Below, one piece after another: positions 4,523 through 61,670 of a stretch of 64,000 nt of DNA. The notes beneath the pieces are model-generated. The model ran no database searches, had not been told where the DNA came from, and saw nothing but the letters and a program-made list of their open reading frames with translations. This stretch comes from an uncultured bacterium (GTDB lineage: Bacteria; Omnitrophota; Omnitrophia; Omnitrophales; Aquincolibacteriaceae), in NCBI GenBank assembly GCA_964606385.1, contig CAZSFZ010000004.1, forward strand, positions 47,344 to 111,343, in the 5' to 3' direction. The position numbers and the translations under genes were made by a program. Position 1 is the first letter of the stretch. Each line of letters opens with the position of its first letter.

Positions 4523-4578
4523 GGGAAACGGCGAACGTGGAACGATAAATGCTTGCGTTACCCGTTCCATGTTTCCCG
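4523..4578. repeat. Family-1 palindromic element: tandem GGAACG/GAAACG units, spacer, inverted CGTTCC/CGTTTC units
   Basis: gggaaacggcgaacgtggaacg-ataaatgcttg-cgttacccgttccatgtttccc, between the DAHP synthase and tyrA. Confidence 0.7.
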
Positions 4579-4619
4579 AAATAGCCTGATAGGCATTATC
4601 ACGGTAAAGAGGTGAATTT

Positions 4620-5471
4620 GTGTTTAGAAAAATAGCAATTATTGGACTGGGTTTGATGGGTGGCTCTTTGGCGGCGGCCTGCCGCAAGAGATTTCCTGGA
4701 GCCCGGATCATCGGGATCAGCCGGAGCCGCGATGCTCTCGCGCTCGCCAAGAAAAAGAAATGGGTCCATGAGGCCACCCGGGACGTGCTGGCCGGTGTTC
4801 AAGGCGCGGAACTCATCGTCCTCTGTACCCCAGTGAACACGTACTTTCCTTATCTGAAGGCCATTGACCAGGTTTGCGCGAAAAACGCTCTCGTGATGGA
4901 CGTCGGAAGTGTCAAAGGCGCTGTTCTGAAAGAAGTAAAATCGCGTGCCTGGAAGAATTTCTCATTTGTCGGGTGTCATCCGATGGTCGGTTCTCACAAG
5001 CGGGGGATCCAGGCTGTGAATCCGGATCTTTATAGGGGAGGTCTCGTGCTGATGACCCCCGACCGTAAAACCTGCTCCTGCGGCCTAAAAAAAGCCGCAA
5101 AGTTCTGGAAAACTTTTACGCCTCGGATCGTGACATTAACTCCCCAGTCCCACGATAAGCTCGTGGGAGAAGCGAGCCATTTACCGCACGCCGTCGCGGC
5201 TTGCCTTATACACACCGTATCGGATCCCGCTTTTAAGGTGGGTTCCACCGGGCTGCGGGATACGACTCGCATCGCGGCCGCGGCATCCTCCGTTTGGGAG
5301 CCTATCTTTACCTCGAACCGGAAGGTCGTGTTGGCCGCTATGAGCCGTTTTGAACAAAAGCTCCGGGCATTCAAGAAACTCCTCCAGGACCGTGATCCCA
5401 AGAAACTGGTCCGGTTCCTCGATCAGGCGCAGCAGAAGCGGAATTCACTGCGGGGAACGGGAAACGGCTAA
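4620..5471 (+). CDS. tyrA: Prephenate dehydrogenase
   Basis: Rossmann motif IAIIGLGLMGGSLAAA and a TyrA-like core. GTG start. The last codons (LRGTGNG*) are supplied by a family-1 repeat element. Confidence 0.8.
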   Translation: MFRKIAIIGLGLMGGSLAAACRKRFPGARIIGISRSRDALALAKKKKWVHEATRDVLAGVQGAELIVLCTPVNTYFPYLKAIDQVCAKNALVMDVGSVKGAVLKEVKSRAWKNFSFVGCHPMVGSHKRGIQAVNPDLYRGGLVLMTPDRKTCSCGLKKAAKFWKTFTPRIVTLTPQSHDKLVGEASHLPHAVAACLIHTVSDPAFKVGSTGLRDTTRIAAAASSVWEPIFTSNRKVVLAAMSRFEQKLRAFKKLLQDRDPKKLVRFLDQAQQKRNSLRGTGNG

Positions 5472-5514
5472 CGGATAACGTAAAAGCCTTTTTCGTTTAT
5501 CGTTCCCCGTTCAT
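5452..5514. repeat. Family-1 palindromic element overlapping tyrA 3' end
   Basis: ggggaacgggaaacggctaacggataacg...cgtttatcgttccccgttcatcgttc. The left arm encodes the tyrA C-terminus RGTGNG*. Confidence 0.7.
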
Positions 5515-5539
5515 CGTTCTGCGCTTAGGAAAAATCCCC

Positions 5540-5568
5540 TTCCCAAAACCGAAAGATATGCTATACTC
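5540..5568 (+). promoter_or_regulatory. Candidate sigma70-type promoter with extended -10 for rpsA (about 120-nt leader)
   Basis: TTCCCA-17 nt-TATACT, preceded by TG (TGcTATACT). Confidence 0.35.
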
Positions 5569-5687
5569 CTCAAGTTCGCATCGATTTCAGTCCTGGCTAC
5601 CGCCAGACTGAGAGGGAAAAACGGTGCGGACCCCCATTTTCATGCAATCCCAATGAGAAGGGGACTCTCAAGGAGGTTTTCCCTATT

Positions 5688-7250
5688 ATGCAATCCAATT
5701 TCGCAGAGCTGTACGAGAAGTCTTTTCAGGACATCAAGATCGGTGAGGTGGTTAAAGGCACCGTGATCGCGGTTCATGAACGCGATGTGGTGGTCGATAT
5801 CGCCTACAAAGCCGAAGGCATTCTGCCCAAGGACGAGTTTTCCCAGCCGGAACTTTTGACCGTCGGGTCCGAGGTCGAGGTGCTTTTCGAAGGGTTTAAT
5901 GATGTGGAAGGTACGGCTATTCTTTCTAAGCGCAAGGCCGACCGGCAGAAGACCTGGAACGACATTCTCTCCAACGCCACCGAAGGCGCTATTGTGGACG
6001 GACGCATCTCCCGCAAAGTTCGCGGCGGGTTCATGGTCGATATCGGCATGGAAGCGTTCCTGCCGGCGTCGCTCGTGGATATCAAGCCGGTCCGCAATCA
6101 GGACATGTTCATCGGCCTGCAGAGCAAGTTCCTCGTCGTCAAGATCAATCATAAGCGCAAGAACGTTGTGGTTTCCCGCAAGGACCTCCTCGAAAAGAGC
6201 CGCAACGAAGCCCGCACGGAAAAACTGGGCACCCTCAAGGTGGGCCAGCTCGTGAAGGGCAAAGTGAAGAACATCACCGATTTCGGCGTGTTCATCGATA
6301 TCGGGAACCTCGATGGTCTTCTCCATATCACGGACATGAGCTGGGGACGCATTTCGCATCCCTCCGATCTCGTGAAGATCGGCGACGACATTGAAGTTGT
6401 TGTGATCGCGATCGATCAGGTCAAGCAGAAGATCTCCCTCGGCCTCAAGCAGAAGGGGACGGATCCCTGGACTTCGGTCGGCGACCGTTACTCGATCGGC
6501 AATCAGGTCCGCGGCAAGGTGGTGAACATCCTGCCGTACGGCGCTTTCGTGGAACTCGAGCCCGGCATCGAAGGGCTGGTCCACATTAGCGAACTTTCCT
6601 GGACGAAGCGCGTCAACCATCCGAGCGAGATCCTCTCGATTGGCATGGAACTCGACGTAGTGATCCTGAGCCTGGATACCGCCGCGAAGAAGATCTCGCT
6701 TGGCGCGAAGCAGGCGCAGGAAAATCCCTGGACCCAGGCCGCCAATAAATATCAGGTCGGCAGCCGTGTGAAAGGGACGATTCGGAACCTCACCGATTAC
6801 GGCGCGTTCATCGAGCTCGAGCCCGGTATTGAAGGGCTGCTCCACGTGTCCGATATCTCATGGACCCACAAGGTCGCCAAGCCGTCGGATGTCCTCAAAA
6901 AAGGGGATGCCGCGGAAGTGATGATCCTGGCGGTCGATACCGACGCGAAGAAGATCTCGCTCGGCATGAAACAGCTGAGCGATGACCCGTGGACGGACCT
7001 CACGAAGAATTTCCTGACCGGCCTGGAACTTCAGGGTAAGGTCACGAGGATCGTGAATTTCGGAGTGTTCGTGGAACTGGATAACGGCCTCGAAGGGCTG
7101 ATCCATGTTTCCGAGATCCCGGATTGCACGGCCCAGGAGCTTTCGAAGCGTTTCAACGTAGGCGACACGCTTCGTTGCAGCATCCTGAACGTCGACCATG
7201 AAGGGCGCAAGATCGCGCTGACCTGCAAGAACGAGCCGATCACGGCCTAA
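5688..7250 (+). CDS. rpsA: 30S ribosomal protein S1 (multiple S1 domains)
   Basis: Repeated S1 RNA-binding domains (VKGTV..., GxV.NI.DFGAFV...). RBS AAGGAGG 8 nt upstream. Confidence 0.9.
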   Translation: MQSNFAELYEKSFQDIKIGEVVKGTVIAVHERDVVVDIAYKAEGILPKDEFSQPELLTVGSEVEVLFEGFNDVEGTAILSKRKADRQKTWNDILSNATEGAIVDGRISRKVRGGFMVDIGMEAFLPASLVDIKPVRNQDMFIGLQSKFLVVKINHKRKNVVVSRKDLLEKSRNEARTEKLGTLKVGQLVKGKVKNITDFGVFIDIGNLDGLLHITDMSWGRISHPSDLVKIGDDIEVVVIAIDQVKQKISLGLKQKGTDPWTSVGDRYSIGNQVRGKVVNILPYGAFVELEPGIEGLVHISELSWTKRVNHPSEILSIGMELDVVILSLDTAAKKISLGAKQAQENPWTQAANKYQVGSRVKGTIRNLTDYGAFIELEPGIEGLLHVSDISWTHKVAKPSDVLKKGDAAEVMILAVDTDAKKISLGMKQLSDDPWTDLTKNFLTGLELQGKVTRIVNFGVFVELDNGLEGLIHVSEIPDCTAQELSKRFNVGDTLRCSILNVDHEGRKIALTCKNEPITA

Positions 7251-7266
7251 AACCTGACTTCGACCG

Positions 7267-8517
7267 ATGACGAGCCCCAGGAACCGTAGAGTCGTCATCA
7301 CGGGCCTGGGGGTCGTCTCGTCGGTCGGTTTTGGCAAAGAAGCCTTTTGGGATTCCATCTCTCAAGGCAAGAGCGGTGTTTCCAACATCAGCTCCTTCGA
7401 CACCACCCCGTTCACCACCCATTTTGCCGGCGAGATCAAGAATTTCGATGCGTCGGCTTTTATCCTTCCCAAAAAACTCAAACGCATGGACCGCACGACC
7501 CAGTTCGCGGTCGTCGCTTCCAAAATGGCCGTGGCAGACGCGAAACTTGATCTCGAGGAACCTACGGTCCGCGAACGGACCGGAGTGATCATCGGGACGG
7601 CTCTTGCCGGGGTGGGCTATATTCTTGAGCAAGCGGTGATCCTGCAGCAAAAGGGGCCGATGCGGTTGAATCCTTTTACGGCGCTGGCATCTTTTCCGGA
7701 CGCTTGCGCGGGAAATGTTTCGATCGAATTGGGACTGAAGGGTCCGAGTTTTTCTCTCGCGACGGCCTGTTCCTCGGCGTCCGACGCGTGCGGGTATGCC
7801 TTTGATGCGATCCGGAGCGGCGATTTGGATTTTCTTATCATGGGCGGCGCGGAAGCGACGATCTTTCCAGGCATTGTCGCTTCCTTTTGCGTGGCTCGCG
7901 CGCTCTCCACAAGGAATGACGCTCCTGAAAAGGCGTCACGGCCTTTCAGCATGGATCGCGATGGATTTGTGCTCGGGGAAGGTGCCGGGATGTTCGTTGT
8001 CGAAGAATACGAGCATGCAAAAAAACGGGGAGCGCATATTTACGCGGAGATCCTCGGTCACGGTATGACCTGCGACGCTTATCACATGACGGCGCCGGAC
8101 CCGGAAGGGACCCAGGCCGCCCGCGCGATGCAACTTGCCATGGAAACGGCGGGCATTACGCCGGACGAGGTCGATTACATCAATGCCCACGGGACTTCGA
8201 CGCCTCTTAATGATAAGACCGAAACTCTGGTCATCAAAAAGATCTTTGGTCCGCGGGCCTATGAGATCCCGATCAGTTCCATCAAATCCATGATCGGGCA
8301 TTTGATCGGCGCGGCCGGAAGCGTCGAGCTGATCGCGACGCTCCTTGCCATGGAACATCAACTGATCCCTCCGACCATCAATTACAACTCCAAAGACCCC
8401 GAATGCGATCTGGATTATGTGCCGAATGTGGCGCGTCCCGCAAAGATCCGGATTGCGATGAAGAATTCCTTCGGCTTCGGCGGCAAGAATTCCATCCTTG
8501 TTTTAAAAAAGGTCTAA
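7267..8517 (+). CDS. fabF: 3-oxoacyl-ACP synthase II
   Basis: KAS II motifs (RRVVITGLGVVS, active-site ATACSSA, HGTSTPLND, GHLIGAAG). Confidence 0.9.
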   Translation: MTSPRNRRVVITGLGVVSSVGFGKEAFWDSISQGKSGVSNISSFDTTPFTTHFAGEIKNFDASAFILPKKLKRMDRTTQFAVVASKMAVADAKLDLEEPTVRERTGVIIGTALAGVGYILEQAVILQQKGPMRLNPFTALASFPDACAGNVSIELGLKGPSFSLATACSSASDACGYAFDAIRSGDLDFLIMGGAEATIFPGIVASFCVARALSTRNDAPEKASRPFSMDRDGFVLGEGAGMFVVEEYEHAKKRGAHIYAEILGHGMTCDAYHMTAPDPEGTQAARAMQLAMETAGITPDEVDYINAHGTSTPLNDKTETLVIKKIFGPRAYEIPISSIKSMIGHLIGAAGSVELIATLLAMEHQLIPPTINYNSKDPECDLDYVPNVARPAKIRIAMKNSFGFGGKNSILVLKKV

Positions 8518-8530
8518 ACCTTTTTTAAAA
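8501..8530. terminator. A/T-rich 13-bp inverted repeat spanning the fabF stop codon (candidate bidirectional terminator for convergent fabF/lpxA)
   Basis: ttttaaaaaaggt-ctaa-accttttttaaaa. The loop contains the fabF TAA. T-runs on both sides. Confidence 0.35.
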
Positions 8531-8545
8531 CAAGGACCGTTTCTC

Positions 8546-8596
8546 GGAGAACGTCAAGCGGTTAACGTTTGCGTTCAACGTTACCCGTTTCCCGCG
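8546..8596. repeat. Family-1-like element (degenerate) between convergent fabF and lpxA
   Basis: cggagaacgtcaagcgg-ttaacgtttgcgttcaacgttacccgtttcccgcg. Confidence 0.5.
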
Positions 8597-8600
8597 TAGT

Positions 8601-9461
8601 TCAGGCGAGTTCTTCTTCAACTTCCGAATCAGTTTCCGCGGTGGTGCGGTTCTTGCGGTGGGAGAGGGTTTCTACGGCGGAGCCATCGAGGATGCCGCGC
8701 TTGGAGGCTTCGATGAACTCCACCATATGCGCGACTTCCTTTGAGTGGAGATTCTTTCGGATCTCTTCGAGCGCCTGACTCACATTGAGACCGGAACGGT
8801 AAAGAAGCCGGTAAGCGTTTTTGATATCCATACGGGTCTCAGGACCGATGCCGGCGCGTCGCATGCCCACCACATTGATCCCTTGAGCCACACCCGGTCG
8901 TCCGCCACAGACCACATAAGGCGGGATGTCCTTGTTGATCGCGGTGAGCGCGCTGACCATTGCCAAAGTGCCGATGCGCGTAAATTGATGGAACCCGGTC
9001 ATACCGGAAAGGAATGCCCGGTCTTCGACGGTGCAATGACCGGTGAGGGAAGCCTGGTTCACCATGATGATATTGTTGCCCAACAGGCAGTTGTGCGCGA
9101 TATGGCAATAAGCCATGATGAAATTGGAGTCCCCGATCACGGTCGCGGTGCCTTCTTTGGTGCCGCGGTGGATCGTCACGAATTCCCGGATGACGTTCTT
9201 TGAGCCGATCTTCGTGAAGGTCGGTTGCCCCTGATAGGCGAGGTCCTGGGGCTCATGACCGATCACGGCGTTCATATGGATCGTGTTATGGTCGCCGATC
9301 TCGGTGCCTTGGCAGAGAAAAGCGCCGGCAAGGATCTTGTTATGGGCCCCGATCTTGACGCCGTCCTCGATCACCACATTCGGACCGATCGTATTGCCGG
9401 CCCCGAGGACAGCGCTCTTTCCGATGATAGCAGATGGATGGATGCTGGATGTAGGTGACAT
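8601..9461 (-). CDS. lpxA: Acyl-ACP--UDP-N-acetylglucosamine O-acyltransferase
   Basis: Left-handed beta-helix hexapeptide repeats and an LpxA-type C-terminal helical domain. N-terminus MSPTSSIHPSAIIGKSAVLG. Confidence 0.85.
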   Translation of the reverse strand: MSPTSSIHPSAIIGKSAVLGAGNTIGPNVVIEDGVKIGAHNKILAGAFLCQGTEIGDHNTIHMNAVIGHEPQDLAYQGQPTFTKIGSKNVIREFVTIHRGTKEGTATVIGDSNFIMAYCHIAHNCLLGNNIIMVNQASLTGHCTVEDRAFLSGMTGFHQFTRIGTLAMVSALTAINKDIPPYVVCGGRPGVAQGINVVGMRRAGIGPETRMDIKNAYRLLYRSGLNVSQALEEIRKNLHSKEVAHMVEFIEASKRGILDGSAVETLSHRKNRTTAETDSEVEEELA

Positions 9462-9491
9462 AGGCCGGAATTATATCACAAGGCCATAACC

Positions 9492-9508
9492 CGGGGAACG
9501 GGAAACGC
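9492..9508. repeat. Family-1 half element (GGAACG arm only) in lpxA/giant-gene divergent region
   Basis: cggggaacgggaaacg, followed 10 nt later by a perfect GC-rich hairpin. Confidence 0.5.
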
Positions 9509-9518
9509 ATTTTTCAAC

Positions 9519-9543
9519 CCACCCCACCTCGTAGGTGGGGTGG
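9519..9543. promoter_or_regulatory. Perfect 11-bp GC-rich hairpin in lpxA/giant-gene divergent promoter region
   Basis: ccaccccacct-cgt-aggtggggtgg. Neither flanking gene ends here, so it is not a simple terminator. Confidence 0.4.
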
Positions 9544-9792
9544 TCATTGGGGATGTTAATGGAGGCTATTCGATGCTATATCCTGCCATTGATAGCGGGC
9601 ATATTTCGTAAGTCGTTTCAAATAGGCATTTTACAGCTGAAAAAAACGTGATTTTTTTCGGTCCCAACCCTTGTTTTTTCGAATCTCATCAGTTATATTT
9701 TCGGCAACTTTCTAAAACCTGAGAAAAATCCGTTTAAATCTATTTCGAAATCAGGGAATCAAAATCCATTTCCGCAAAGGACAAACTGCTGA

Positions 9793-9888
9793 ATGAATTC
9801 GCATAAAACATTCAAAGCGTTCGTTGCTGGTTTTACGGCCCTCATTTTTACCGTTACAAGTTTCGGAATTTCACCCAACGCTTTTGCG
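9793..9888 (+). other. Predicted Sec signal peptide of giant protein (cleavage near AFA/AAA)
   Basis: MNSHKTFKAFVAGFTALIFTVTSFGISPNAFA|AAA: n-region with K, hydrophobic core, AxA site. Confidence 0.6.
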
Positions 9889-12800
9889 GCCGCAGCCATG
9901 CCTGAAGTGTCTCTGCCGTATCAGGCCGCGCTCGGCCAAAGCCTGAATCTTGCGGTCCCTCAAAAACTTGGCAAACTCGAACATTTCAACGCGGGGCAAA
10001 GCGATAAGCCCGCGATCTTCCATCTCCAGACAGCTCACGGGCATTATGAAGCCCAACAGCAGATCCGCGAGATCCTTCATTATCTTGATAAACAATACGG
10101 TGTGCGGACCGTGCTGGTCGAAGGTAGCGCTTTCAAGCTCGAACCCGAGCTCCTGAATTTTTTCCCCAAAGATAAAGCGCTGACGCAGAAGGTGAATGAC
10201 GCGCTTACAAAACGCGCGATCGTCAAAGGCCCCGAACTGTATTTGCTCGATATGCTCGGGGAACGGGGAACGGGGAACGCAAACGTTAACCGTTCCACGC
10301 ATGACGTTTCCCGCGCTGCCGCACCGGCAGCGTACGGCATCGAAGACCTCAATGCTTATCGCGAGAACGGCGTTTCATTTGTAAACGTGCTCGAGGAAAA
10401 ACAGAAGACCGAACAATTCCTCGCGGACATGAACCTCCAGATCGACCGGCTTGCGAGCCAGCTCCTGAACAAAGACCTCCGCGATTTTCTTCGTCGCGTG
10501 GATGCCTTTGAAAAGAACCAGATCCCGCTCGATACCTGGCTTGCCCAGTTGAAAGGGGAGGCCGCCAAGCGCCTCGAGATCGATCTCGCTTCTCCCACCC
10601 AGCAGTTGGATTGGCCGATGATGGTACGTCTTTTCAAGGCCCAGGAGTTGACCGCGAAAATTGACCGCGAAAAACTCCCGAAGGAACGTGAGGAGTTTCT
10701 GAAAGCGATCCGGCGTTTTATGCCGGGGAACGTAAAACGTGGAACGCAGAACGATCCGTCAACCGTTTCCCGTTCACCGTTCATCGCGATCGAATCGTTG
10801 CTTCATAGCGATTCGATAAGCGTCCAGCTTCCAGATCCTGAAACCGGCATGCTTTTTGAAGATATGGTCACGCAACTTCCCGCGAATTTCAATTATGAAG
10901 CTTTCCCGAATGTCCGCAATTTTATCGCGACCCTGCTCCTTCAAAGCGAGTTGAAAGCCGACCTGGTGATGTTGGAAGTCCAGAAACTTACGGCAGCGGT
11001 CACGGAAAAGCTGACCCGCAACAAGACCGAGAAAAAACTGGTGACGCTGCTTGCCGACCACCGGTTGTTGCAGAAGCTCTTTGCGCTGGAGCTCACGCCG
11101 GCCGATTACGAAGCAATCGCGGGACACGATCCACGGTCCAAGGCCCACGAAAAAACTTTAAAGCCCTCAGCGATCGTAGCGCGGTTTAAAAACGTGGCCC
11201 GTGGCCCGGGAGCCGTGGCCCGGAGCAAGGCTGTTCAATTTGAAAACGTTCAAGAACTTGATCAGCTCGACCAGTTATATGAAAGCGCGATGAAGTTCTA
11301 TGAGGGCGTCAAAGGGCGCGACGAGCTCATGATGAAGCGCGTTGAAGAGCGTCTCAAGGAGACGGGGGATCAGAAAGTCGCTGTGATTACCGGCGGTTTC
11401 CATTCCGAGCCTTTCCATAAATATTTTGCGAACAAGCAATACACCTATGCCCTTATTTCTCCGCGCATCTCAGGCGCTGACGACAAAGGCCACGTTGCCT
11501 ACATCGAAAGCGTCATGGGCATCACGAAACGCGCGACACGCGAGTCCGTTTCTCCGGCGGACCGGCAGGTGCTCGCGGCGGAGAATTTATACGGGGTCGA
11601 TCAGGCAGCCTACCGGAACCTGGTCCGGAAAGTCATCGCGGATGTGACGCGGCCCCACCTTGCAGAAGCAGACGCGGCTCGTTTGAAATTTGCGGCTGGG
11701 CTTGCGACGGCGGGGAATTTCCGCGCTGAAATGCGTCAGACCGTGCCGGGCACGCCTCAGAACACCGGGGAGACGGCGGCCATTACCTTTACGGAAGCCA
11801 AAGATATCGTAGAAGCCCGTAAAGCCAAAGCGCGGGTCCAGGGGACGCGCGGGGCTTGGCCCAGTCTCGACTCTGTTTTTCGCGATTCCTCTTTTGTGTT
11901 CATTCCAATCGCTGTCGGGTCCGAATTTGCTGGAAATTATTTTCTCCGAAGCCGCTCCGAAGCGAGAGCAAACGATGAGGGATTGATAGAGCAAATTGTG
12001 AGGGACCTTAAAGAGAACATTCAAGCGGGTCCCGACTTTATCTTGACTGCTCTTCAAAACCGGCGCAGCTTGCTGACCCTTGAGCTCAATTATTATGATA
12101 TTGCGGAGCAAATTTACCAGACGCTTTCAAAAACCGGGATGAAAAAGGTGGAAGCCGAGATTTTTTTCAGCAAAAACTCCGATGCTATCCGCCAGGCATT
12201 TTCCCGTTCCGAGGCCCGTACCGAGGAAGAAGAAAGAGCTTTGAGTGTCGATATCCTGCTTGGGCAGTCGCCTCAAAAGTTGCCCCAGGATGTTATTCAT
12301 AAGCTCAAAGAAAACGGTTTTCAGACGTTTGGGGACATTCTGACGGCTCTTGATGAGAAGCTTCGGAAAGGGAAGAGAAGGTTTTCTTTTCTGGATTGGG
12401 TGACAGAAGTTGAATTCCTCGTCGCTGTGAAGCGCGAGGCGCCCATCAGCTATGCCAAAATTCAGAAAATCCGCACCCCCAAAAGCCGTGCGGAAGTACG
12501 CGAAGCAAGCGAATTCGGGATTGAGGAAGATGACAAGTTTCCAATGACCGATGCCGAGGCGGATCTTTCCCTCGACGATATCATCGGGGAACTGTATGCC
12601 GTAGCGGATGCGGATGAAAGCGATTCCGGCGATGCCAAGGCTGAAGCGCTTCAGCATATTGATTTGATCCAGAGCGCCAAGCATAAAAATCAACTTCTTC
12701 CGGCTATCGTTGATGCTCAGAAATTCCTCCGCAGTCCCTTAGCGGCCAATCGATCAGAAGTTCGAATCGATCCGAAAGAGCTTGAAGCAAAATTCCCGAC

Positions 12801-31496: not shown

Positions 31497-31792
31497 TGTT
31501 CGTATTGGGCATTATTTTTCAAGGATTAGCGATGCTGGTGAACGGGATCTGCACGATCCTTTATTGGCTTCTTTTCGCGAGGATCCTTGTCTCGTGGTTC
31601 CCAGTCGATCCTTACTCGGGTCCAATGCAATTCCTGAGGCAGGTCACGGATCCGATCCTGGAGCCGCTCCGGCGGCTTCCGCTGCGGATCGGGATGATGG
31701 ATTTTTCACCCCTGGTCGCTTTTTTCATGATCTACGTGACGAACAAGGTGCTTGTTACGATCCTTATAAGGCTTGCCTACCAATTCCAATAG
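31496..31792 (+). CDS. yggT: YggT-family membrane protein
   Basis: ILYWLLFARILVSWFP...DPYSGP...LRRLP, typical YggT. ATGA overlap with proC. Confidence 0.75.
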   Translation: MFVLGIIFQGLAMLVNGICTILYWLLFARILVSWFPVDPYSGPMQFLRQVTDPILEPLRRLPLRIGMMDFSPLVAFFMIYVTNKVLVTILIRLAYQFQ

Positions 31793-31805
31793 GAGATATT
31801 TGATT

Positions 31806-32654
31806 ATGCCGATGAAACGCACTCAAAAACCCCAAGGCCCACTTTTGCAGAAGATCGATGCCTGTGTTGCGGCCATCCGGGAAAAAACGGATTTTGTCCC
31901 GGAGATCGCGCTGGTGCTTGGGACGGGGCTCGGGAATCTCGCGAAGAGGATCAAGGCGGAAAAGGTCCTGACGTATGAACAACTGCCGCATTTCCCGAAA
32001 TCGACCGTGGAATCCCATAAGGGACAGCTCGTGCTTGGTGAACTTTCCGGGAAAAAGATCGCGGCGATGGAAGGCCGGTTCCATTTTTACGAAGGATATG
32101 CCCTTGAGGATGTGACGTTCGGGGTGCGCGTTCTCAAACAACTGGGCGCCAAGACGCTCATTGTTTCGAACGCGGCAGGCGGACTCAATTTGAATTATAA
32201 AAAAGGCTCCATCGTCCTGATCAAGGATCACATCAATTTTATGGGTGTGAATCCGCTTGTGGGCCCGAATGAGAATAAACTGGGCCCCCGGTTCCCGGAC
32301 ATGTATGAACCTTATTCCCAGCGCTTGATCGATCTTACGGTGAAGGCTTCCAAGGAAGTTAAAGTGCCTGTGGAACAAGGCGTCTATATCGGGGTGACGG
32401 GGCCCTGCCTCGAGACGCGGGCGGAATACCGCATGATGCGTCAGTGGGGCGCGGACCTCGTCGGGATGTCCACGGTGCCCGAAGTGATCGTGGGCGTGCA
32501 TATGGGGATGGAGATCCTGGGTTTCAGTATTGTGACCGATACGTGTGACCCGGACCATCTGGAGCCCTGCAATATCCAAGAAATTATCAAGACGGCGAAC
32601 GAGGCCGGCCCGAAGCTGGATAAACTGATCACGGCGGCGATCGCGAAATTCTAA
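31806..32654 (+). CDS. punA: Purine nucleoside phosphorylase (PNP family 2 / PunA-type)
   Basis: LVLGTGLG, GRFHFYEGY and VSNAAGGLN motifs. Start uncertain (ORF-track 31773; ATG 31806/31812). Confidence 0.75.
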   Translation: MPMKRTQKPQGPLLQKIDACVAAIREKTDFVPEIALVLGTGLGNLAKRIKAEKVLTYEQLPHFPKSTVESHKGQLVLGELSGKKIAAMEGRFHFYEGYALEDVTFGVRVLKQLGAKTLIVSNAAGGLNLNYKKGSIVLIKDHINFMGVNPLVGPNENKLGPRFPDMYEPYSQRLIDLTVKASKEVKVPVEQGVYIGVTGPCLETRAEYRMMRQWGADLVGMSTVPEVIVGVHMGMEILGFSIVTDTCDPDHLEPCNIQEIIKTANEAGPKLDKLITAAIAKF

Positions 32655-32660: not shown

Positions 32661-32730
32661 GGAAACGGGAAATGGCGAACGGGAAACGGACTACAGCTTG
32701 CGTTCAACGTTCCCCGTTATCCGTTTCCCC
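32661..32730. repeat. Family-1 palindromic element between PNP gene and ileS
   Basis: ggaaacgggaaatggcgaacgggaaacgg-actacagcttg-cgttcaacgttccccgttatccgtttcccc. Confidence 0.7.
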
Positions 32731-32762: not shown

Positions 32763-35591
32763 ATGGCAGAAGAAAAATCGTATAAAGAAACTTTGAATCT
32801 TCCCCAGACAAGCTTTCCCATGAAAGCGAATCTGGCCCAGCGTGAGCCGGAGATGCTCAAGGCCTGGGAAGCTCAGGACCTGCATGCGGCGATCCGCGCG
32901 AAGTCCGCGGGGAAGCCCAAGTACATCCTTCACGACGGGCCTCCTTACGCGAACGGACACATCCACATTGGTCACGCGCTGAATAAAGTGCTGAAAGACC
33001 TCATCGTGAAATACCAGACGATGCGGGGCCATGACGCGCTCTATGTGCCGGGCTGGGATTGCCACGGGCTTCCGATCGAGCATGCCTGTCTCAAGGAGAT
33101 GGGAAAGCGCAAGGAAGAAGTAGACCGGGTCGAATTCCGGAAACAGGCCCGCAAATACGCCGAAAAATTCGTCGGGATCCAACGCGAGGAGTTCAAGCGG
33201 CTCGGGATCTTCGGGGAGTGGGATGCGCCGTACCTCACGATGAACTACGGCTACCAGACCGCGATCGCGGCGTCTTTCCTGAAACTTTACGAAGACGGTT
33301 TTATTGAACAGCGTTTGAAGCCCGTTCCGTGGTGCCATGATTGCGATACGGCGCTCGCGGAGGCCGAGCTTGAATATGAAGACAAGATCTCCAAGTCGGT
33401 TTATGTGAAATTTCCCGTCGAACATACCTCAAGCTCTTTAAAACTTCCGTCCGGTGCTAAAGTTTATTTGCTGGTATGGACCACGACGCCCTGGACGCTC
33501 CCGGCCAACGTCGGTTCGGCCGTGCATCCCGAACTCGAGTACGGATTATTTCAGAAGGGCGACGAGTTTTACATCTTTGCCAAAGCGCTCGAGGCGAAGC
33601 TTAAAGAGAAGGTCGATCTTGCCGGATTCAATCTTGTGAAGACCCTGGCAGGTCAGGAACTCAACGGGATGGAGTACCATCATCCCTTCCTCGACCGTAA
33701 AGGAAAAGTGATCACGGCGGATTATGTTTCCAGCGAAGACGGCACGGGGATCGTGCATATCGCGCCGGGACACGGCGAGGACGACTACAAGCACGGGCAT
33801 CTCGAGCATGGGCTCGCGATCATTTCGCCGGTGGACCACCGCGGAAGGTTTACGGAAGAATTCCCGTTCTGCAAAGGCGAGCATGTTTTCAAGGCGAACC
33901 CCAGGATCACGGCGCTTTTGGCTGAAAAAGGGCTGCTTCTCAAGGAAGAGGATTACTCGCACAGCTACCCTCATTGCTGGCGCTGCAAAAAACCGATCCT
34001 TTTTCGCGCGACCACGCAATGGTTCATGAAGATCGACCACAAAGATCTCCGCAAACGCATGAAACACGCGATCGATAAGGATATCCAGTTCATTCCGGAT
34101 TGGGGAAGGAACCGCATCGGGGCGATGGTGGAAACGCGTCCGGAATGGTGCCTGTCGCGCCAGCGGTATTGGGGCGTGCCGATCCCGGTGATCCGCTGCA
34201 AAAATTGCTCCGGCGTTCATTTTGTGAAAGAGTCCAAGGCGAAGATCCTCGGGCTTTTCGAAAAAGAGGGGGCCGATGCCTGGTTCGCGCATCCGGCGGA
34301 GGCTTTTCTGCCTCCGGGGATCAAGTGCCCGAAATGTCACCGATCCGAATTTGAAAAGGAGAGTGATATTATCGATGTCTGGTTCGATTCGGGAGTGAGC
34401 CATCAGGCCGTGCTCCGCCGCCATCCGGGCTTGCGCTATCCCGCGGATCTTTATCTCGAAGGTTCCGACCAGCACCGGGGATGGTTCCAAAGCGCGCTCA
34501 CGACGGCGATGGCGCTCGAGAACAAGAGCTCGTTTAAAAGCGTCCTGACGCACGGGTTCGTGATGGACGGCCAGGGAAAGAAAATGTCCAAGTCCGCCGG
34601 GAATGTCGTGACGCCGCAGGATGTGATGAAGGAGTTCGGCGCCGACGTGCTGCGGCTTTGGGTGACCTCGTGCGATTATCAGTTCGATGTCCGGCTCTCC
34701 AACGAGATCCTGAAGCAGCTTGTGGACACGTACCGCAAGATCCGCAACACGTTCCGTTATTTTCTTTCGAACCTTTACGATTTTGAACACGTGAAGCATG
34801 CTGTCCCTTATGAAAAACTGCATCCGCTCGACCGATGGGCGATGGCTCGGGCGGATCATCTGGTCGCGTCGGTCACGGGACTTTATGAGCGTTTTGAATT
34901 TCATGAGATCTACCGCGAGGTCTACGATTTCTGCGTGGTAGACCTGAGCGCTTATTATCTGGACGCGCTGAAGGATACGCTTTATACCGCGGCGCCGGTT
35001 TCCTGGCTTCGCCGTTCGGCCCAGACGGCGTTTCTCTATATCCTTTCGAGGCTCGTGAAGATCGTGGCGCCGGTCCTGCCTTTTACGGCGGATGAGGTAT
35101 GGAAATCGTACAAGCTCGAGGAGGGAGTGACGACGGTGCACGCGAGCGCGTGGCCGGAAATATCGAAAGACAAGAACGCGAAGGAATTCCGCGATTGGGA
35201 ACATCTCCGCGAGGTCCGGAATGCCGTCACACCGTTCCTTGAAAAGAAGCGGGAAGCCAAGGAGATCGGCGCGGGACTGGAGGCGAAGGTGATCCTGACT
35301 GCAGAAGATCCGGAATCTGCCGAAATATTACATAGATATGAAAAAGAACTCGCTCGCGTTTTTGTCGTGTCCCAGGTCGCTCTGGAGACTCAGACCGTGG
35401 AGGGTATGGAGGCCGCAGAAAGTGTTTCCGCGGTGCTCCAGAAAAAGTTCGGACTGAAGGTCCTTGTGACCCGGGCCGAAGGCGCGAAATGCGCCCGCTG
35501 TTGGAATTATTCCTCCTTCCTCGGTCAGGATCCCGAACACGGGACGCTTTGTCCCAAATGCACCGAAGCGATCCGGGAAAGCCGTTCTTAA
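32763..35591 (+). CDS. ileS: Isoleucine--tRNA ligase
   Basis: HIGH motif (PYANGHIHIGHALN), KMSKS (KMSKSAGN), CP1 editing region, C-terminal Zn-finger (CARCWNY...CPKC). Confidence 0.9.
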   Translation: MAEEKSYKETLNLPQTSFPMKANLAQREPEMLKAWEAQDLHAAIRAKSAGKPKYILHDGPPYANGHIHIGHALNKVLKDLIVKYQTMRGHDALYVPGWDCHGLPIEHACLKEMGKRKEEVDRVEFRKQARKYAEKFVGIQREEFKRLGIFGEWDAPYLTMNYGYQTAIAASFLKLYEDGFIEQRLKPVPWCHDCDTALAEAELEYEDKISKSVYVKFPVEHTSSSLKLPSGAKVYLLVWTTTPWTLPANVGSAVHPELEYGLFQKGDEFYIFAKALEAKLKEKVDLAGFNLVKTLAGQELNGMEYHHPFLDRKGKVITADYVSSEDGTGIVHIAPGHGEDDYKHGHLEHGLAIISPVDHRGRFTEEFPFCKGEHVFKANPRITALLAEKGLLLKEEDYSHSYPHCWRCKKPILFRATTQWFMKIDHKDLRKRMKHAIDKDIQFIPDWGRNRIGAMVETRPEWCLSRQRYWGVPIPVIRCKNCSGVHFVKESKAKILGLFEKEGADAWFAHPAEAFLPPGIKCPKCHRSEFEKESDIIDVWFDSGVSHQAVLRRHPGLRYPADLYLEGSDQHRGWFQSALTTAMALENKSSFKSVLTHGFVMDGQGKKMSKSAGNVVTPQDVMKEFGADVLRLWVTSCDYQFDVRLSNEILKQLVDTYRKIRNTFRYFLSNLYDFEHVKHAVPYEKLHPLDRWAMARADHLVASVTGLYERFEFHEIYREVYDFCVVDLSAYYLDALKDTLYTAAPVSWLRRSAQTAFLYILSRLVKIVAPVLPFTADEVWKSYKLEEGVTTVHASAWPEISKDKNAKEFRDWEHLREVRNAVTPFLEKKREAKEIGAGLEAKVILTAEDPESAEILHRYEKELARVFVVSQVALETQTVEGMEAAESVSAVLQKKFGLKVLVTRAEGAKCARCWNYSSFLGQDPEHGTLCPKCTEAIRESRS

Positions 35592-39096: not shown

Positions 39097-39582
39097 ATGG
39101 CAAAAGCTAAAAAATCATCAAAGAAATCATCCAAAAAATCATCCCGGAAACCCGTCAAGCGGTCCGCTAAAAAGCCGGCCAAGGCGCCCAAGGCGTCTAA
39201 AGTTTCGCGTCTTTCCAAGAGGGATCTCGAACTTTACAAGAAAATGCTTCTCCACCTCCGCGGCAAGATCGCCGGGGACCTCCAGCAGATCGAAGGGGAC
39301 ACCCTCAGCGCGAACCAGCCCGGCAATACCGGAGAGCTTTCCGATGTGGCGGATATGGCCACTGACAATTATGACCGGGAACTGAATATCGGTCTTGCCA
39401 CCAATGAGCAGCAGCTCTTGAACGATATCGATATGGCCCTCAAAAAGATCGACGATGGCACCTACGGTATTTGCGAGATCTACGGGACGCCGATCCCCAA
39501 GAAGCGTCTCATGGCCATGCCGTATACCCGCCTTTCAATGAAGGCGCAGGAAGAAGAGGAGAAGAACAAACGTCATCAGTAA
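39097..39582 (+). CDS. dksA: DksA/TraR-family protein with Lys-rich N-terminal tail and degenerate zinc finger
   Basis: DksA coiled-coil and a C-terminal TYGICEIYGTPIPKKRL in place of CxxC...CxxC (one Cys only). N-terminal KKSSKKSSKKSSRKPVKRSAKKPAKAPKASK tail. Confidence 0.65.
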   Translation: MAKAKKSSKKSSKKSSRKPVKRSAKKPAKAPKASKVSRLSKRDLELYKKMLLHLRGKIAGDLQQIEGDTLSANQPGNTGELSDVADMATDNYDRELNIGLATNEQQLLNDIDMALKKIDDGTYGICEIYGTPIPKKRLMAMPYTRLSMKAQEEEEKNKRHQ

Positions 39583-45507: not shown

Positions 45508-45556
45508 CCGATAGCACCCGTTTTGCTATAGGCTATGAGCTGAGGGCTATAAGCTG
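45484..45556. repeat. Family-3 palindromic element (ATAGCC / GGCTAT units) overlapping ubiX 3' end
   Basis: cagcctatagctgatggccaatagccgatagcacccgttttgctataggctatgagctgagggctataagctg. Supplies the ubiX C-terminal codons and stop. Confidence 0.6.
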
Positions 45557-45567
45557 AAAAGGGTCTT

Positions 45568-51754: not shown

Positions 51755-51806
51755 GTGCCACGGGCGCACGGGCCAAGGTCCACGACGTGGTGCGTGGATC
51801 GCGGGG
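51755..51806. repeat. Family-2 palindromic element between folE and lpxD (convergent)
   Basis: gtgccacgggcgcacgggccaaggtccacgacgtggtgcgtggatcgcgg. Confidence 0.6.
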
Positions 51807-56522: not shown

Positions 56523-56627
56523 CGATTGATCAAAGGTGGGGTCCTACAAGACGGCTTCATCTTGCGGTAAGGTGACTCAACGCGGGTTTTGAGTTTTTTT
56601 ATGAGATTCAAAATTGAGGGGAAAAAG

Positions 56628-57263: not shown

Positions 57264-57309
57264 AACCATGGGAAACGGCAAAAAAGGTTTTTTAGGAGGA
57301 TCCAAAGAA

Positions 57310-57933: not shown

Positions 57934-57971
57934 CAGATAATTTCGCGATGGTTTGCGACTTGAGGTGGAAA

Positions 57972-58583
57972 ATGTCGTTTCGGAGCTTTGCTTGGATGAT
58001 CGTTTTGGCGTTGATGCTGCCGGCGCGAGGATGGGCCGGTTCGGTGGAACTGACCACCTATTTGCCCATGCCGCATGGCCGTTATAAGCGAGTGACCACC
58101 ACGGGGCAAACCAATTTTGCGACCGGTAATAATGCGGGACAAGCCGTTGGCATCGGGACTGCGACCCCTACGAATATTGCGGCGAACGATAGTGTTCCTA
58201 ATATCGATCTGCACATTACGGGAAATATCATGCAGGAGAATTGGAAGCTTATCGGAGCCGCGGGGCAGCCGGGTTTTCAAAGCGGTTTTGAAAATTGTCC
58301 CTCGGGATGGGGTTATAATTCAGCGGGTTTTTTTCGGGATAAAAACGGGATCGTGCATCTGAGGGGTTTGGTGCGAGGACCGCTTAACAGTACGGTTTTT
58401 CAATTGCCGGCGGGATACACGCCGGCGAGGAATGAACTTTTCGCTGTGATGTCCGCCGGTTCCGGTTCTCATAGCTGGTCGCGCCTTACGGTTCAATCCA
58501 ATGGGGTCGTGCTATTTCAGCACAACGGAGGCCCCGATTGGTACTGTCTGGATGGCATTACGTTTCGGGCGAGCGGATATTAG
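57972..58583 (+). CDS. Secreted protein, paralogue 3 of a tandem triplet
   Basis: RBS GAGGTGG before ATG 57972. Signal peptide (ARGWAGS). Same blocks, ending LDGITFRASGY. Confidence 0.65.
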   Translation: MSFRSFAWMIVLALMLPARGWAGSVELTTYLPMPHGRYKRVTTTGQTNFATGNNAGQAVGIGTATPTNIAANDSVPNIDLHITGNIMQENWKLIGAAGQPGFQSGFENCPSGWGYNSAGFFRDKNGIVHLRGLVRGPLNSTVFQLPAGYTPARNELFAVMSAGSGSHSWSRLTVQSNGVVLFQHNGGPDWYCLDGITFRASGY

Positions 58584-58655
58584 GATTTTCAAAGGCATTT
58601 GATTTTTTGAGAAGTAAAGTAAGGGTGAAGTTCCGTCCTTTTTATTTTGAGTTTG

Positions 58656-58684
58656 TTGACATTCCCGAAGTGCTTTTGTATGAT
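58656..58684 (+). promoter_or_regulatory. Near-consensus sigma70-type promoter upstream of guaB-like/guaA
   Basis: TTGACA-17 nt-TATGAT, about 110 nt upstream of ATG 58796. Confidence 0.5.
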
Positions 58685-58795
58685 ACCGCAAATGGGACAC
58701 GAATCATTTCGAGTTACTCACCTTTTTAAGCAAAATTCCGCAGGTGTTTCTTCTGCCCGCTCACTACTTTTTCACGACTAAGGGAGGAATCTGTC

Positions 58796-59956
58796 ATGTC
58801 AGTTTTTATCGGTAAGGACCGCAAAGCACGCAGGGCCTATGGTTTTGATGAGATCGCGCTCGTCCCGGGGGATATCACCATCAACCCCGAGGAAGTGGAT
58901 ATTCAGATGAAGATCGGGAAGATCATCTTTGATATCCCGTTCCTGGCATCCGCCATGGACGGTGTGGTGGACCCGAAATTCGCCGTTGCGATGGGGAAAC
59001 TTGGGGGTTTAGCCGTGCTGAACCTCGAAGGCATCTATACTCGCTACGACGATTATGAGACGATCTTGGATGAGATCGCGAAATCGTCCCCGGAAAAAGC
59101 GACGGAGCTTGTCCAGAAGCTCTACGTGAAGCCGATCGACGAGAAGTTGATTGCCAAGCGTATCCGGGAGATCAAAAAGGCCAAAGTGCCGTGTGCCGTG
59201 AGCGCGATCCCGCAGCGTGCTGAGAAATTCGGCAAGATCGCCGAAGAGGCCGGGGCGGATATCTTTGTGGTGCAGTCGACTGTTACGACGGTGCATCACA
59301 TCGCGAAAGCCTACAAGGTCGTGGATTTCAAGAAACTTTGTAAAGGGATGAAGATCCCCGTGATCCTCGGGAACTGCGTGACTTACAAGGTCGCGCTGGA
59401 ACTCATGGAAACCGGTTGCGCGGGACTTTTGGTCGGGATCGGGCCCGGTTCGGCCTGTACGACGCGCGGCGTGCTCGGGATCGGCGTGCCGCAGGTGACG
59501 GCCATCGCGGATTGCGCGGCGGCCCGCGAATTCCATCACAAGAAGACCGGTAAGTATGTTTCCATCATCGCGGACGGCGGCATGTCCACCGGCGGCGATA
59601 TCTGCAAATCCATCGCTTCCGGTGCGGACGCGGTGATGGTGGGATCCGCTTTTGCCCGCAGCAAGGAAGCGCCGGGCCGTGGTTTTCACTGGGGGATGGC
59701 GACACCGCACGCGAATCTGCCGCGCGGCACCCGGATCCGGGTTGGGACGACGGGGACGCTTGAAGAGATCCTGGTCGGGCCCGCGAAACTGGATGACGGG
59801 ACGCAGAACCTTGTAGGAGCGCTCCGCACTTCGATGGGGAACGTCGGCGCCCAGACCATCCGTGAGATGCAGCTGACCGAGATCGTGATCGCTCCGGCCA
59901 TCAAGACCGAAGGCAAAGTGTTCCAGTCCGCTCAAAAATTAGGAATGTGTAAGTAA
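58796..59956 (+). CDS. IMP dehydrogenase-family protein lacking the CBS subdomain (GuaB-related)
   Basis: IMPDH/GMPR TIM-barrel motifs (catalytic loop GIGPGSACTTR, phosphate loop GGMSTGGDICKSIASGADAVMVGS). Only 386 aa, so no room for a CBS pair. Confidence 0.7.
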   Translation: MSVFIGKDRKARRAYGFDEIALVPGDITINPEEVDIQMKIGKIIFDIPFLASAMDGVVDPKFAVAMGKLGGLAVLNLEGIYTRYDDYETILDEIAKSSPEKATELVQKLYVKPIDEKLIAKRIREIKKAKVPCAVSAIPQRAEKFGKIAEEAGADIFVVQSTVTTVHHIAKAYKVVDFKKLCKGMKIPVILGNCVTYKVALELMETGCAGLLVGIGPGSACTTRGVLGIGVPQVTAIADCAAAREFHHKKTGKYVSIIADGGMSTGGDICKSIASGADAVMVGSAFARSKEAPGRGFHWGMATPHANLPRGTRIRVGTTGTLEEILVGPAKLDDGTQNLVGALRTSMGNVGAQTIREMQLTEIVIAPAIKTEGKVFQSAQKLGMCK

Positions 59957-59958
59957 AA

Positions 59959-60034
59959 CAGGGACACGAGCTTCGGGCCACGCACCCCCTAGAACAAAGA
60001 GTGATCGTGGCTCGTGGATCGTGGCCCGTGGACC
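59959..60034. repeat. Family-2 palindromic element between guaB-like gene and guaA
   Basis: gggacacgagcttcgggccacgcacc-spacer-cgtggctcgtggatcgtggcccgtggacc. Confidence 0.65.
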
Positions 60035-60045
60035 GAGAAAATATT

Positions 60046-61584
60046 ATGGAAGAAACCATCGTCGTTCTGGATTTTGGATCGCAATACACGCAGCTCATTG
60101 CCCGCCGCGTTCGTGAGAACAAGGTCTTCTCGAAGGTCTATCCCTATTATGTGCCTTTTGAGCAGGTGCTTGCGGACAAGCCGAAAGGGATCATCTTTTC
60201 AGGGTCACCCGCCAATGTGTACGCCAAGAACGCTCCGATCCCGGACCGGCGTTTTTTTGTAAGCGGGATACCGATCCTCGGGATCTGCTACGGCATGCAG
60301 CTGCTTTCCCACAAGTTGGGCGGCCGGGTTCACAAATCCAAGAAGCGTGAATACGGCCTCGCCAAGCTCCATGTCGCCGGGAAAAGCCCTCTTTTTTCCG
60401 GGGTCCCAAAGGCCATCAATTGCTGGATGAGTCATGGAGATAAACTGGACCGCCTGCCCACGGGTTTTGAACGGCTGGCGTATACCGAGAACGCGCCCTT
60501 TGCCGCCATGGGGAACGCGAAGCTTAAAACATACGCGATCCAATTCCATGCCGAGGTCGTGCACACCGAATTCGGTTCCAAGATCCTTGGGAACTTCCTG
60601 ACCGGGATCTGCGGCTGCCGCCGGCACTGGACCCCCAAATCTTTTATCAAGGAAAGCGTTCGGAAGATCCGCCAGCAGGTCGGCAGCGACCGCGTCGTGC
60701 TCGGGCTTTCGGGCGGCGTGGATTCATCCGTCGCCGCGGGGCTGATCCATAAAGCCATCGGGAAAAAACTGACCTGTATCTTTGTGGATAACGGGTTGCT
60801 TCGCATGAATGAGGTCGCCCGGGTCGACAAGACCTTTCGCGGGCATTTCAAAATGAACCTCAAGGTGGTGGATGCCGAAAAGATCTTTTTGAAGCGCCTG
60901 AAGGGCGTGATCGATCCCGAGAAAAAACGGAAGATCATCGGAAAGACCTTTATCGATGTGTTTCAAAAGGAAGCCAACAAGCTCGGGAAGGTGCCGTTCC
61001 TCGCGCAGGGGACGCTTTATCCGGACGTGATCGAGTCGGTATCCTATTTTGGCGGGCCCACGAGCACGATCAAAAGTCATCACAACGTCGGCGGACTTCC
61101 CAAAGACATGAAGTTCAAGCTTGTCGAACCCCTCAAAGAACTTTTCAAAGACGAGGTTCGCGCGGTGGGATACGCGCTTGGGATCGATAAGGATATTGTC
61201 GGGCGCCAGCCTTTCCCGGGTCCAGGGCTTGCGGTGCGTATCCTGGGCGAGGTCCGCAAGGACCGTTGCGATCTTCTCCGGAAGGCCGACTGGATCGTGA
61301 TCGATGAGATCAAAAAGGCCGGCTATTATGACAAGGTATGGCAGTCTTTCGCCGTGCTGCTTCCGATCCAGAGCGTCGGTGTGATGGGGGATGAACGGAC
61401 CTACGAGAACGCCGTGGCGGTACGCGCCGTGACCTCCCAAGATGGCATGACCGCGGATTGGGCCAAACTGCCCCCGGAACTTTTGGGCAGGATCTCCAAC
61501 CGCATCATCAACGAAGTCCGCGGCATCAACCGCGTCTGTTACGATATCTCCTCAAAGCCCCCGGCCACGATCGAGTGGGAGTAA
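60046..61584 (+). CDS. guaA: GMP synthase (glutamine-hydrolysing)
   Basis: GATase N-terminus IVVLDFGSQYTQLIARRVRE, PP-loop SGGVDSSV, C-terminal dimerisation domain. ATG 60046. Confidence 0.9.
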   Translation: MEETIVVLDFGSQYTQLIARRVRENKVFSKVYPYYVPFEQVLADKPKGIIFSGSPANVYAKNAPIPDRRFFVSGIPILGICYGMQLLSHKLGGRVHKSKKREYGLAKLHVAGKSPLFSGVPKAINCWMSHGDKLDRLPTGFERLAYTENAPFAAMGNAKLKTYAIQFHAEVVHTEFGSKILGNFLTGICGCRRHWTPKSFIKESVRKIRQQVGSDRVVLGLSGGVDSSVAAGLIHKAIGKKLTCIFVDNGLLRMNEVARVDKTFRGHFKMNLKVVDAEKIFLKRLKGVIDPEKKRKIIGKTFIDVFQKEANKLGKVPFLAQGTLYPDVIESVSYFGGPTSTIKSHHNVGGLPKDMKFKLVEPLKELFKDEVRAVGYALGIDKDIVGRQPFPGPGLAVRILGEVRKDRCDLLRKADWIVIDEIKKAGYYDKVWQSFAVLLPIQSVGVMGDERTYENAVAVRAVTSQDGMTADWAKLPPELLGRISNRIINEVRGINRVCYDISSKPPATIEWE

Positions 61585-61588
61585 AACC

Positions 61589-61670
61589 GGGGGAACGGGG
61601 AACGTTGAACGGGCAACGTTAAAAAACCTATGATAAAATCTTTTTTTCGTTCCCCGTTAGCCGTTCCCCG
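61589..61670. repeat. Family-1 palindromic element between guaA and dnaE
   Basis: ggggaacggggaacgttgaacgggcaacgtt-A/T-rich spacer (aaaaaacctatgataaaatcttttttt)-cgttccccgttagccgttcccc. Confidence 0.7.

Follow-up and report, generated by a model that had tools for sequence, protein, structure and literature searches.

Palindromic heptad arrays at gene ends and inside genes of an Omnitrophota genome

We present here an analysis of family 1, a set of short palindromic elements found in a 64-kb stretch of DNA from an uncultured bacterium of the Omnitrophota (contig CAZSFZ010000004.1, positions 47,344 to 111,343; the whole stretch is called the window below). The arms of each element are tandem heptamers, NNNAACG on the left and CGTTNNN on the right, repeated at 7-nt spacing with the consensus unit GGGAACG. 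The best reading of family 1 is that it is the local Omnitrophota version of a widespread class, which we call heptad-array palindromes. Each element is gained or lost as a whole, with no duplication of the target, and the elements accumulate in the few permissive places of a compact genome, namely the first bases past stop codons and surface-loop positions in proteins. Their turnover is quick, and therefore relatives have other unit families at the same sites; only the 4-nt core at 7-nt phase is kept. A tentative, and in our view quite plausible, account is that these are insertional palindromes comparable to the repetitive extragenic palindromes (REP) and the Rickettsia palindromic elements (RPE), which fill a few permissive sites, turn over fast, and have their phased cores kept by a putative trans-acting factor.

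Family-1 elements in the window

On the whole, direct reading of the window gives seven complete inverted pairs and one half element with a left arm only (Table 1). All eight loci named in the initial annotation exist, and their coordinates are refined here by the element termini, which read CG-GGGAACG...CGTTYCC-CG with the element ending at each hyphen. An element spans 50-85 bp and usually consists of 3-4 phased heptads (GGR-AACG), a loop of 0-29 nt and 3-4 inverted heptads (CGTT-YCC); convergent arrays with 3-4 units per arm are present at 7/8 loci. The outermost units, GG(G/A)AACG and CGTT(T/C)CC, are the most regular. The unit had been described as a hexamer, and this has to be rejected, for the strict hexamer GGAACGGGAACG with at most 1 mismatch gives 0 matches in the window and the heptamer AACGNNNAACGNNNAACG at the same tolerance gives 23 against 0.53 expected. 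The full left-spacer-right hairpin pattern is matched 5 times against 0.00 expected, and period 7 is also reported by TRF. In fact, when AACG and CGTT are chained at 7-nt spacing, the result is exactly the loci of the initial annotation and almost nothing besides. The density of 8 copies in 64 kb, or about one per 8 kb, is found in other Omnitrophota loci too. The consensus unit, read directly from the sequence, contains stop codons in no frame. In addition, an independent Logan assembly is 100% identical across window positions 2746-5656, a range that spans two of the copies.

Two copies lie inside a giant open reading frame (ORF), and the statement that both are read through in frame is confirmed for the 4906-aa ORF. 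The copy at 10257 is a clean insertion of 21 codons that is missing from 8/8 homologues covering the site, with the flanks conserved on both sides (ELYLLE before, AYGIEDL after), so that elements do persist in coding DNA without loss of frame. The copy at 10724 sits in a linker that varies in length. In an AlphaFold model of residues 1-536 of the giant protein (mean pLDDT 65), the peptides encoded by these two copies are placed in low-confidence coils, at residues 159-175 and 313-327 respectively, and the right arm of an element of another family, family 2, falls at residues 474-482. The suggestion that the giant gene has expanded by such insertions is unsupported: the three in-ORF elements (two of family 1 and one of family 2) are all within the first 480 codons and add about 60 of the 4906 residues (~1%), so they do not explain the gene size.

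As had been claimed, the final six codons of tyrA and its stop come from the copy at the 3' end of the gene. The C-terminus reads ...KRNSLRGTGNG, and the TAA stop lies inside the third heptad, GCTAACG. Most of 120 listed TyrA homologues are 277 aa long and end in ...KRxxL without the extension, and at least 12 of the 120 have family-1-like extensions (RGTRNGER, RGTGNGEC, AGER, AGNG). Both TyrA and the giant protein have homologues that carry the annotation Candidatus Omnitrophota. As for the intergenic copies, the initial annotation had put six of them in gaps between co-directional genes, and this stands for four, each of them after a stop codon (aroF-tyrA, tyrA-rpsA, PNP-ileS and guaA-dnaE); one further copy is in the convergent fabF/lpxA gap, and the half copy is in the divergent gap between lpxA and the giant gene.

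Table 1. Coordinates in the window of palindromic elements and of the genes around them (MFE, minimum free energy of the predicted RNA fold in kcal/mol; z, score against shuffled sequences)
Feature	Position	Strand	Remarks
Family-1 element	4522-4578		aroF-tyrA gap; 3 + 3 heptads; loop ATAAATGCTTG; MFE -26.2, z -3.6
Family-1 element	5451-5519		overlaps tyrA 3' end; 4 + 4 heptads; encodes RGTGNG and stop
Family-1 element	8545-8594		convergent fabF/lpxA gap; 3 + 3 heptads; loop TTTG; MFE z -1.6
Family-1 half element	9492-9507		left arm, 2 heptads; divergent lpxA/giant-gene gap; no CGTT array after it
In-frame insertion, 63 nt/21 codons	10252-10314	+	giant ORF; encodes MLGERGTGNANVNRSTHDVSR; holds family-1 element 10257-10313; MFE -33.3, z -4.6
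Family-1 element	10724-10786	+	giant ORF, in frame (GNVKRGTQNDPSTVSRSPF); 4 + 3 heptads; z +0.63
Family-1 element	32661-32730		PNP-ileS gap; 4 + 4 heptads; starts 7 nt past stop; MFE -30.3, z -2.9
Family-1 element	61588-61670		guaA-dnaE gap; 4 + 3 heptads; 29-nt A/T-rich loop; starts 4 nt past stop; MFE -32.7, z -2.2
Family-2 copy	3377-3477		hisC-aroF gap
Family-2 copy	11117-11222		giant ORF; arms either side of a conserved coding segment
Family-2 copy	51764-51804		convergent folE/lpxD gap
Family-2 copy	59961-60040		just upstream of guaA
aroF	3496-4512		Pfam
tyrA	4620-5471		Pfam
rpsA	5688-7250		Pfam
fabF	7267-8517		Pfam
lpxA	8601-9461	-	Pfam
Giant ORF, 4906 aa	9793-24513	+	
PNP-family gene	31773-32654		Pfam
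ileS	32763-35591		Pfam
guaA	60001-61584		Pfam
dnaE	from 61686		Pfam

Two of the copies have other inverted repeats beside them. A perfect 19-bp inverted repeat, TCCTTGTTTTAAAAAAGGT and ACCTTTTTTAAAACAAGGA at 8495-8536, holds the fabF stop in its 4-nt loop and directly precedes the family-1 copy in the fabF/lpxA gap, and a GC-rich hairpin, CCACCCCACCTCGTAGGTGGGGTGG at 9517-9545, directly follows the half element.

Site re-use in relatives and the wider class

We compared the window with seven syntenic loci (L056, L122, L123, L149, L150, L151 and L152). At almost all gaps and in-gene positions orthologous to those of the window, these loci have an inverted array of heptads or octads, in most cases with a unit from a different family. 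The unit families seen are GGCCACG (family 2), GGATGGA, GTACGGA, GTACATA, GGGACTC, GCGCAAC and AGTCTCC, and further arrays in the relatives are built of the octads GTCACNNN and GTRTCAAN or of AT-rich units. A comparison of orthologous loci for presence and absence had been proposed in the initial annotation, and empty sites are indeed found, namely the aroF-tyrA gap in L149 and positions 10252-10314 in the 8/8 homologues mentioned above. The aroF-tyrA gap has only 14 nt in L149 and 107 nt with the element in the window; at the same place there are GGATGGA arrays in L056, family-2 arrays in L150 and family-1 arrays in L154. At the 3' end of tyrA, the family-1 copy is kept in the window, L150, L153 and L154 with varying unit number, and L056, L149 and L151 have a GGATGGA array after a normal stop codon. 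In the gap orthologous to fabF/lpxA, L122 and L150 each have an octad array and L149 has AT-rich arrays; in L122 a full (GTACATA)3 hairpin stands at the position of the half element between lpxA and the giant gene. The same holds inside the giant ORF. The site of copy 10724, after RRFMP, has GTACGGA in L122 and L123 and GGATGGA in L152, and is empty in the more distant homologues P0004, P0005 and P0008. After ELYLLE, where the window has its family-1 copy, the distant L150 has an AGTCTCC array and the other genomes are empty; the two arrays look like independent insertions of two families at one permissive site.

Family 1 is not confined to the window: further Omnitrophota contigs have it too, at sites that are not orthologous (L040, L056, L109, L110, L144/L148, L146 and L154). 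The right arms of the copies have a majority unit order, CAA-CCC-ANC-TCC; that of copy 32661, CAA-CCC-ATC-TCC, follows this order, which is also present in L110, L144 and L146. Some loops have GCTTG or TAAAAG..CTTTTT in common. The shared unit order and loop motifs thus argue for common ancestry of the copies rather than purely local slippage.

Besides family 1, other period-7 and period-8 arrays are present. Family 2 in the window has GGNCCAC-G as the left arm and CGTGGNC as the right arm, with 20 matches against 2.2 expected. The guaA ORF as listed starts with GTG at 60001, within a family-2 right arm; the start at ATG 60047, after AATATT, is more likely. A third period-7 array lies in the intergenic region 45508-45567 (GCTATAG GCTATGA GCTGAGG GCTATAA GCTGAAA, with a partial inverse before it). 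The inverted arrays with 8-nt period, (GTCACNNN)4 and (GTRTCAAN)4, are at L122:1283-1362, L150:13901-13989 and L150:5507-5638, where the window has heptads.

More widely, a search with the hairpin pattern, taking one genome per species, gives at least 120 loci against about 0.1 expected. The matches listed include Acidobacteriota, Chloroflexota, Verrucomicrobiota, Bacteroidota, Gemmatimonadota, Planctomycetota, Xanthomonadales, Omnitrophota and others, and among them the unit is specific to each lineage, e.g. GATGAAC, GTGAAAC, GTCCAAC and GCTGAAC. Since AACG is imposed by the search pattern, its conservation across phyla reflects ascertainment. By crude ORF calls, the matches listed fall in co-directional gaps (50), convergent gaps (28), divergent gaps (13) and inside ORFs (24), many of the last class being probably spurious ORF calls; on the same calls the median distance to the upstream stop is 4 nt. 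In the bacterial flanks, the convergent arrangement of AACG heptads outnumbers the other 6 to 1. The outermost unit tends to AAACG or CGTTT across phyla in the matches listed (L002-L121) despite differing inner units, and where outer units are unlike the inner ones, 35/64 carry the AAACG/CGTTT base against one third expected.

Phage contigs in IMG/VR (L126-L143) have the opposite order, (CGTTNNN)3-6, spacer and (NNNAACG)3-5. Among 20 viral loci that match this order 18 are genuine divergent pairs, and the only two convergent matches in these contigs are simple AACGTTG tandem arrays fitting both patterns. A universal polarity rule is accordingly rejected.

Constraint, known systems and rival explanations

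Of the 52 units combined in a logo, 50-51 have AACG intact (~1.8 bits), and positions 1-3 are merely G-biased (0.4-0.8 bits). Between the window and L150, the copies at the tyrA 3' end are identical at 29/32 core positions and at 12/24 variable positions (p = 0.0016). No co-variation of the arms is seen: the mean MFE is -25.6 kcal/mol for cognate and -29.9 kcal/mol for non-cognate arms, and the variable positions pair in 45% and 52%, respectively. Likewise, in four orthologous copies of the tyrA 3' end the cognate arms fold at -25.0 kcal/mol against -28.7 kcal/mol for non-cognate or chimeric ones, with no better complementarity. Compensatory evolution of the arms is thus rejected. As the phased core is kept and the arms do not co-vary, specific base pairs are not maintained, and the hairpin is a potential rather than a demonstrated constraint. 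What stands of the earlier description as a dispersed, hairpin-capable family of the size of REP or of MITEs (miniature inverted-repeat transposable elements) is therefore the size and the dispersal to other Omnitrophota genomes, with the hairpin as potential only.

For the mode of insertion, we read the flanks of 13 copies (the in-ORF boundaries against L122) for target-site duplications, a check proposed at the outset, and none of the 13 is flanked by a direct repeat of this kind. CTGCG occurs on both sides of 5451-5519 and is not repeated at any other copy. Under the insertional reading that we prefer, a trans-acting protein would read the phased cores. It might be a mobilising enzyme, as for REP elements, or a cooperative DNA binder, and would propagate, homogenise or select for the elements; a hairpin role at transcript 3' ends, if any, would be secondary.

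Several observations weigh against this reading. The family-1 copies are divergent with none near-identical, and their loops vary in sequence and length. The JGI metagenomes contain a 19-mer common to two copies, CGTTCAACGTTCCCCGTTA, at just 5 loci, by which a recent burst from a master copy is rejected. Among the ~40 annotated ORFs of the window there is no transposase, recombinase or obvious DNA binder; none of them matches a transposase family, no gene for a REP-associated tyrosine transposase (RAYT) is seen within the 64 kb, and the remaining annotated ORFs are housekeeping genes. Finally, in the giant gene the same coding segment, LKPSxxVxRF, is flanked by family-2 arms in the window (11117-11222) and by GGATGGA arms in L152, and genomes compared at the hisC-aroF gap likewise have a common centre with different arms. 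Whole-element insertion does not explain these two places, where a loop is retained with arms of a different family. At the LKPS site, the GTACGGA hairpin of L122 and L123 is complete and lies on one side alone.

The arm swaps could be accounted for if arms were rewritten in place, that is, by a templated and site-directed replacement of both arms by another unit with the loop untouched. This would amount to a heptad-writing system, e.g. reverse-transcriptase-like or recombinase-like with a short template. The support for it comes mainly from the LKPS site, with the hisC-aroF gap being similar, and we consider it quite improbable. A telomerase-like addition at breaks is rejected, as it leaves the arms flanking retained host DNA unexplained.

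The main rival is that the elements are host-functional arrays for protein binding, where the heptad would be the site for a subunit or dimer of a putative cooperative binder, arranged head to head. Such arrays would mark gene ends (as a roadblock, in nucleoid organisation or in regulation) and evolve in place by point mutation and slippage, the unit family switching with its cognate binder. This explanation shares with ours the recognition of the core, and it agrees with the randomised flanks around the phased core in orthologues, with the lack of arm co-variation, with the equal folding of the two strands (in 46 co-directional elements among the matches listed, sense against antisense gives 24 vs 21, p = 0.95), with the mostly convergent AACG heptads in bacterial flanks, and with conserved positions at which unit families are swapped, including the arms around a retained loop. 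It explains the arm swaps better than insertion does. It explains worse the clean whole-element insertions with their empty sites and the in-ORF copies, which are clustered within the initial 1.4 kb of a single gene with no obvious regulatory logic; moreover, several binders would be needed, as families coexist in each genome, and a candidate binder is not found among the window ORFs. On balance we regard it as rather unlikely.

An action at the RNA level, with stem-loops serving as terminators or as 3'-end stabilisers against exonucleases and the stem being built or lengthened by slippage, would suit the placement a few nt past stops, the excess of convergent over divergent gaps (28 vs 13 in the matches listed) and the presence of some hairpin array in nearly every orthologous gap of relatives. 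Xanthomonas arrays are also mostly transcribed (PMC4692102). Most copies have stable predicted hairpins: the RNA folds of the seven elements range from -17.6 to -33.3 kcal/mol, five having z from -2.2 to -4.6, with copy 8546 being weak (z -1.6) and copy 10724, in the ORF, having no stable fold, no better than shuffles (z +0.63). However, no T-run follows the elements, whose 3' sequences are GAAATAGCC, TGCGCTTAGG, GCGTAGTTC, CATTTAAC and GAGAGACG, and an intrinsic (Rho-independent) terminator, a GC-rich hairpin with a following T-run, is rejected at every copy. The sense strand has no folding advantage, by which strand-specific selection on RNA is rejected; cognate arms are not more complementary in either comparison given above; the conserved feature is the AACG core, not the pairing; and a strong terminator within a 14.7-kb gene would be harmful. 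The covariance models of Rfam match nothing in the window; in 18 related loci they find a tRNA and nothing else. The RNA-level explanation is thus judged improbable. Still less favoured, and highly improbable in our estimate, is that G-rich heptamers form G-quadruplexes, as proposed for the GGGNATC repeats of Xanthomonas and Nostoc. GGGAACG does resemble GGGAATC and 3-4 units are preferred, but conservation of the family-1 unit is lowest at its G positions 1-3, four intact G-tracts are missing in most arms, and other arrays of the same genomes, such as the GTACATA, GTCACNNN octad and AT-rich ones, are not built of G-tracts.

The over-representation of heptamers in bacterial genomes has been known since 2007, without explanation. 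Among the described systems, GGGAATC arrays in Xanthomonas form 70-75 convergent pairs with four units preferred and a similar gene-context bias, and they lie near stop codons, with 7-11% intragenic, their function being unknown (PMC4692102). Heptanucleotide families are also reported within and between genes of Geobacter metallireducens (PMC2700814), and TAACTGA repeats in Beggiatoa (PMC4679880); literature searches on the unit sequences of our families themselves gave nothing relevant. The heptamers of Xanthomonas and Geobacter are alike to family 1 in the 7-nt unit, the preference for about four units, the convergent pairs with stem-loop potential, and the location mostly in gaps of aligned genes within 50 bp of the stop, with divergent gaps rare and a minority intragenic. 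They differ in unit sequence and phylum, and since family 1 conserves AACG and not the G-tract, the G-quadruplex rationale of Xanthomonas does not carry over.

REP elements, together with the compound forms BIME and REPIN, share with family 1 that they are short dispersed extragenic palindromes at gene 3' ends and in convergent gaps without target-site duplication, that several families are possible per genome, and that REP is maintained by a trans-acting protein recognising a short motif. Unlike them, family 1 has no GTAG/CGTC tag, its arm is a tandem of heptads and not itself palindromic, and its copies differ from each other much more than those of typical REPINs do. The Rickettsia palindromic elements are also inserted in frame in conserved genes and tolerated at surface or loop positions, whereas most family-1 copies are intergenic; the Rickettsia elements are longer (~100-150 bp), not built of phased heptads, and unrelated to family 1 in sequence. 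MITEs such as Correia/NEMIS resemble family 1 as small, non-autonomous, intergenic elements with inverted-repeat ends and possible effects on transcripts, but family 1 has neither target-site duplication nor a related autonomous insertion sequence (IS), its loops are not conserved and its arms are tandem arrays. For protein binding, the omega repressor of pSM19035, a ribbon-helix-helix (RHH) protein, binds 7-bp heptads that adjoin one another, either direct or inverted, and MetJ has 8-bp boxes in tandem as its binding sites. These operators are likewise contiguous 7-bp or 8-bp units, both direct and inverted, with only part of the unit specified, so the architecture and the core-only conservation of family 1 would fit heptad operators of RHH type. 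However, omega and MetJ operators are few promoter or centromere sites on plasmids or in regulons, in contrast to about one element per 8 kb at gene ends and in ORFs.

Significance and further observations

The architecture itself is already known descriptively from Xanthomonas and Geobacter. What is new here is the Omnitrophota families, with several families per genome and multi-family re-use of fixed sites, the in-frame insertions verified by orthologues, the constraint on the core only, the lack of arm co-variation, and the arm swap around a retained loop. With many unit families, conserved sites, ortholog-verified insertions and a phased 4-nt core in one lineage, these bacteria make an unusually clean comparative system, in which the question of what reads or writes arrays phased at 7 nt becomes directly testable. 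For genome annotation, it matters that the elements change protein C-termini and add loops to conserved proteins.

Two further features of the window are worth recording. The ~110 nt upstream of rpsA (window 5560-5687) are almost identical in the window, L056, L149, L150 and L151, although TyrA is only 71-81% identical. This stretch carries a TATACT -10-like box and GAGAGGGAAAAACGGTGCGGACCCCCATTTTCATGCAATCCCAATGAGAAGGGGACTCTCAAGGAGG, has no match in Rfam, and is probably a structured S1 leader. In addition, the start of a dksA-like ORF has the 12-mer AAAAAATCATCC three times in tandem, at 39109-39144.

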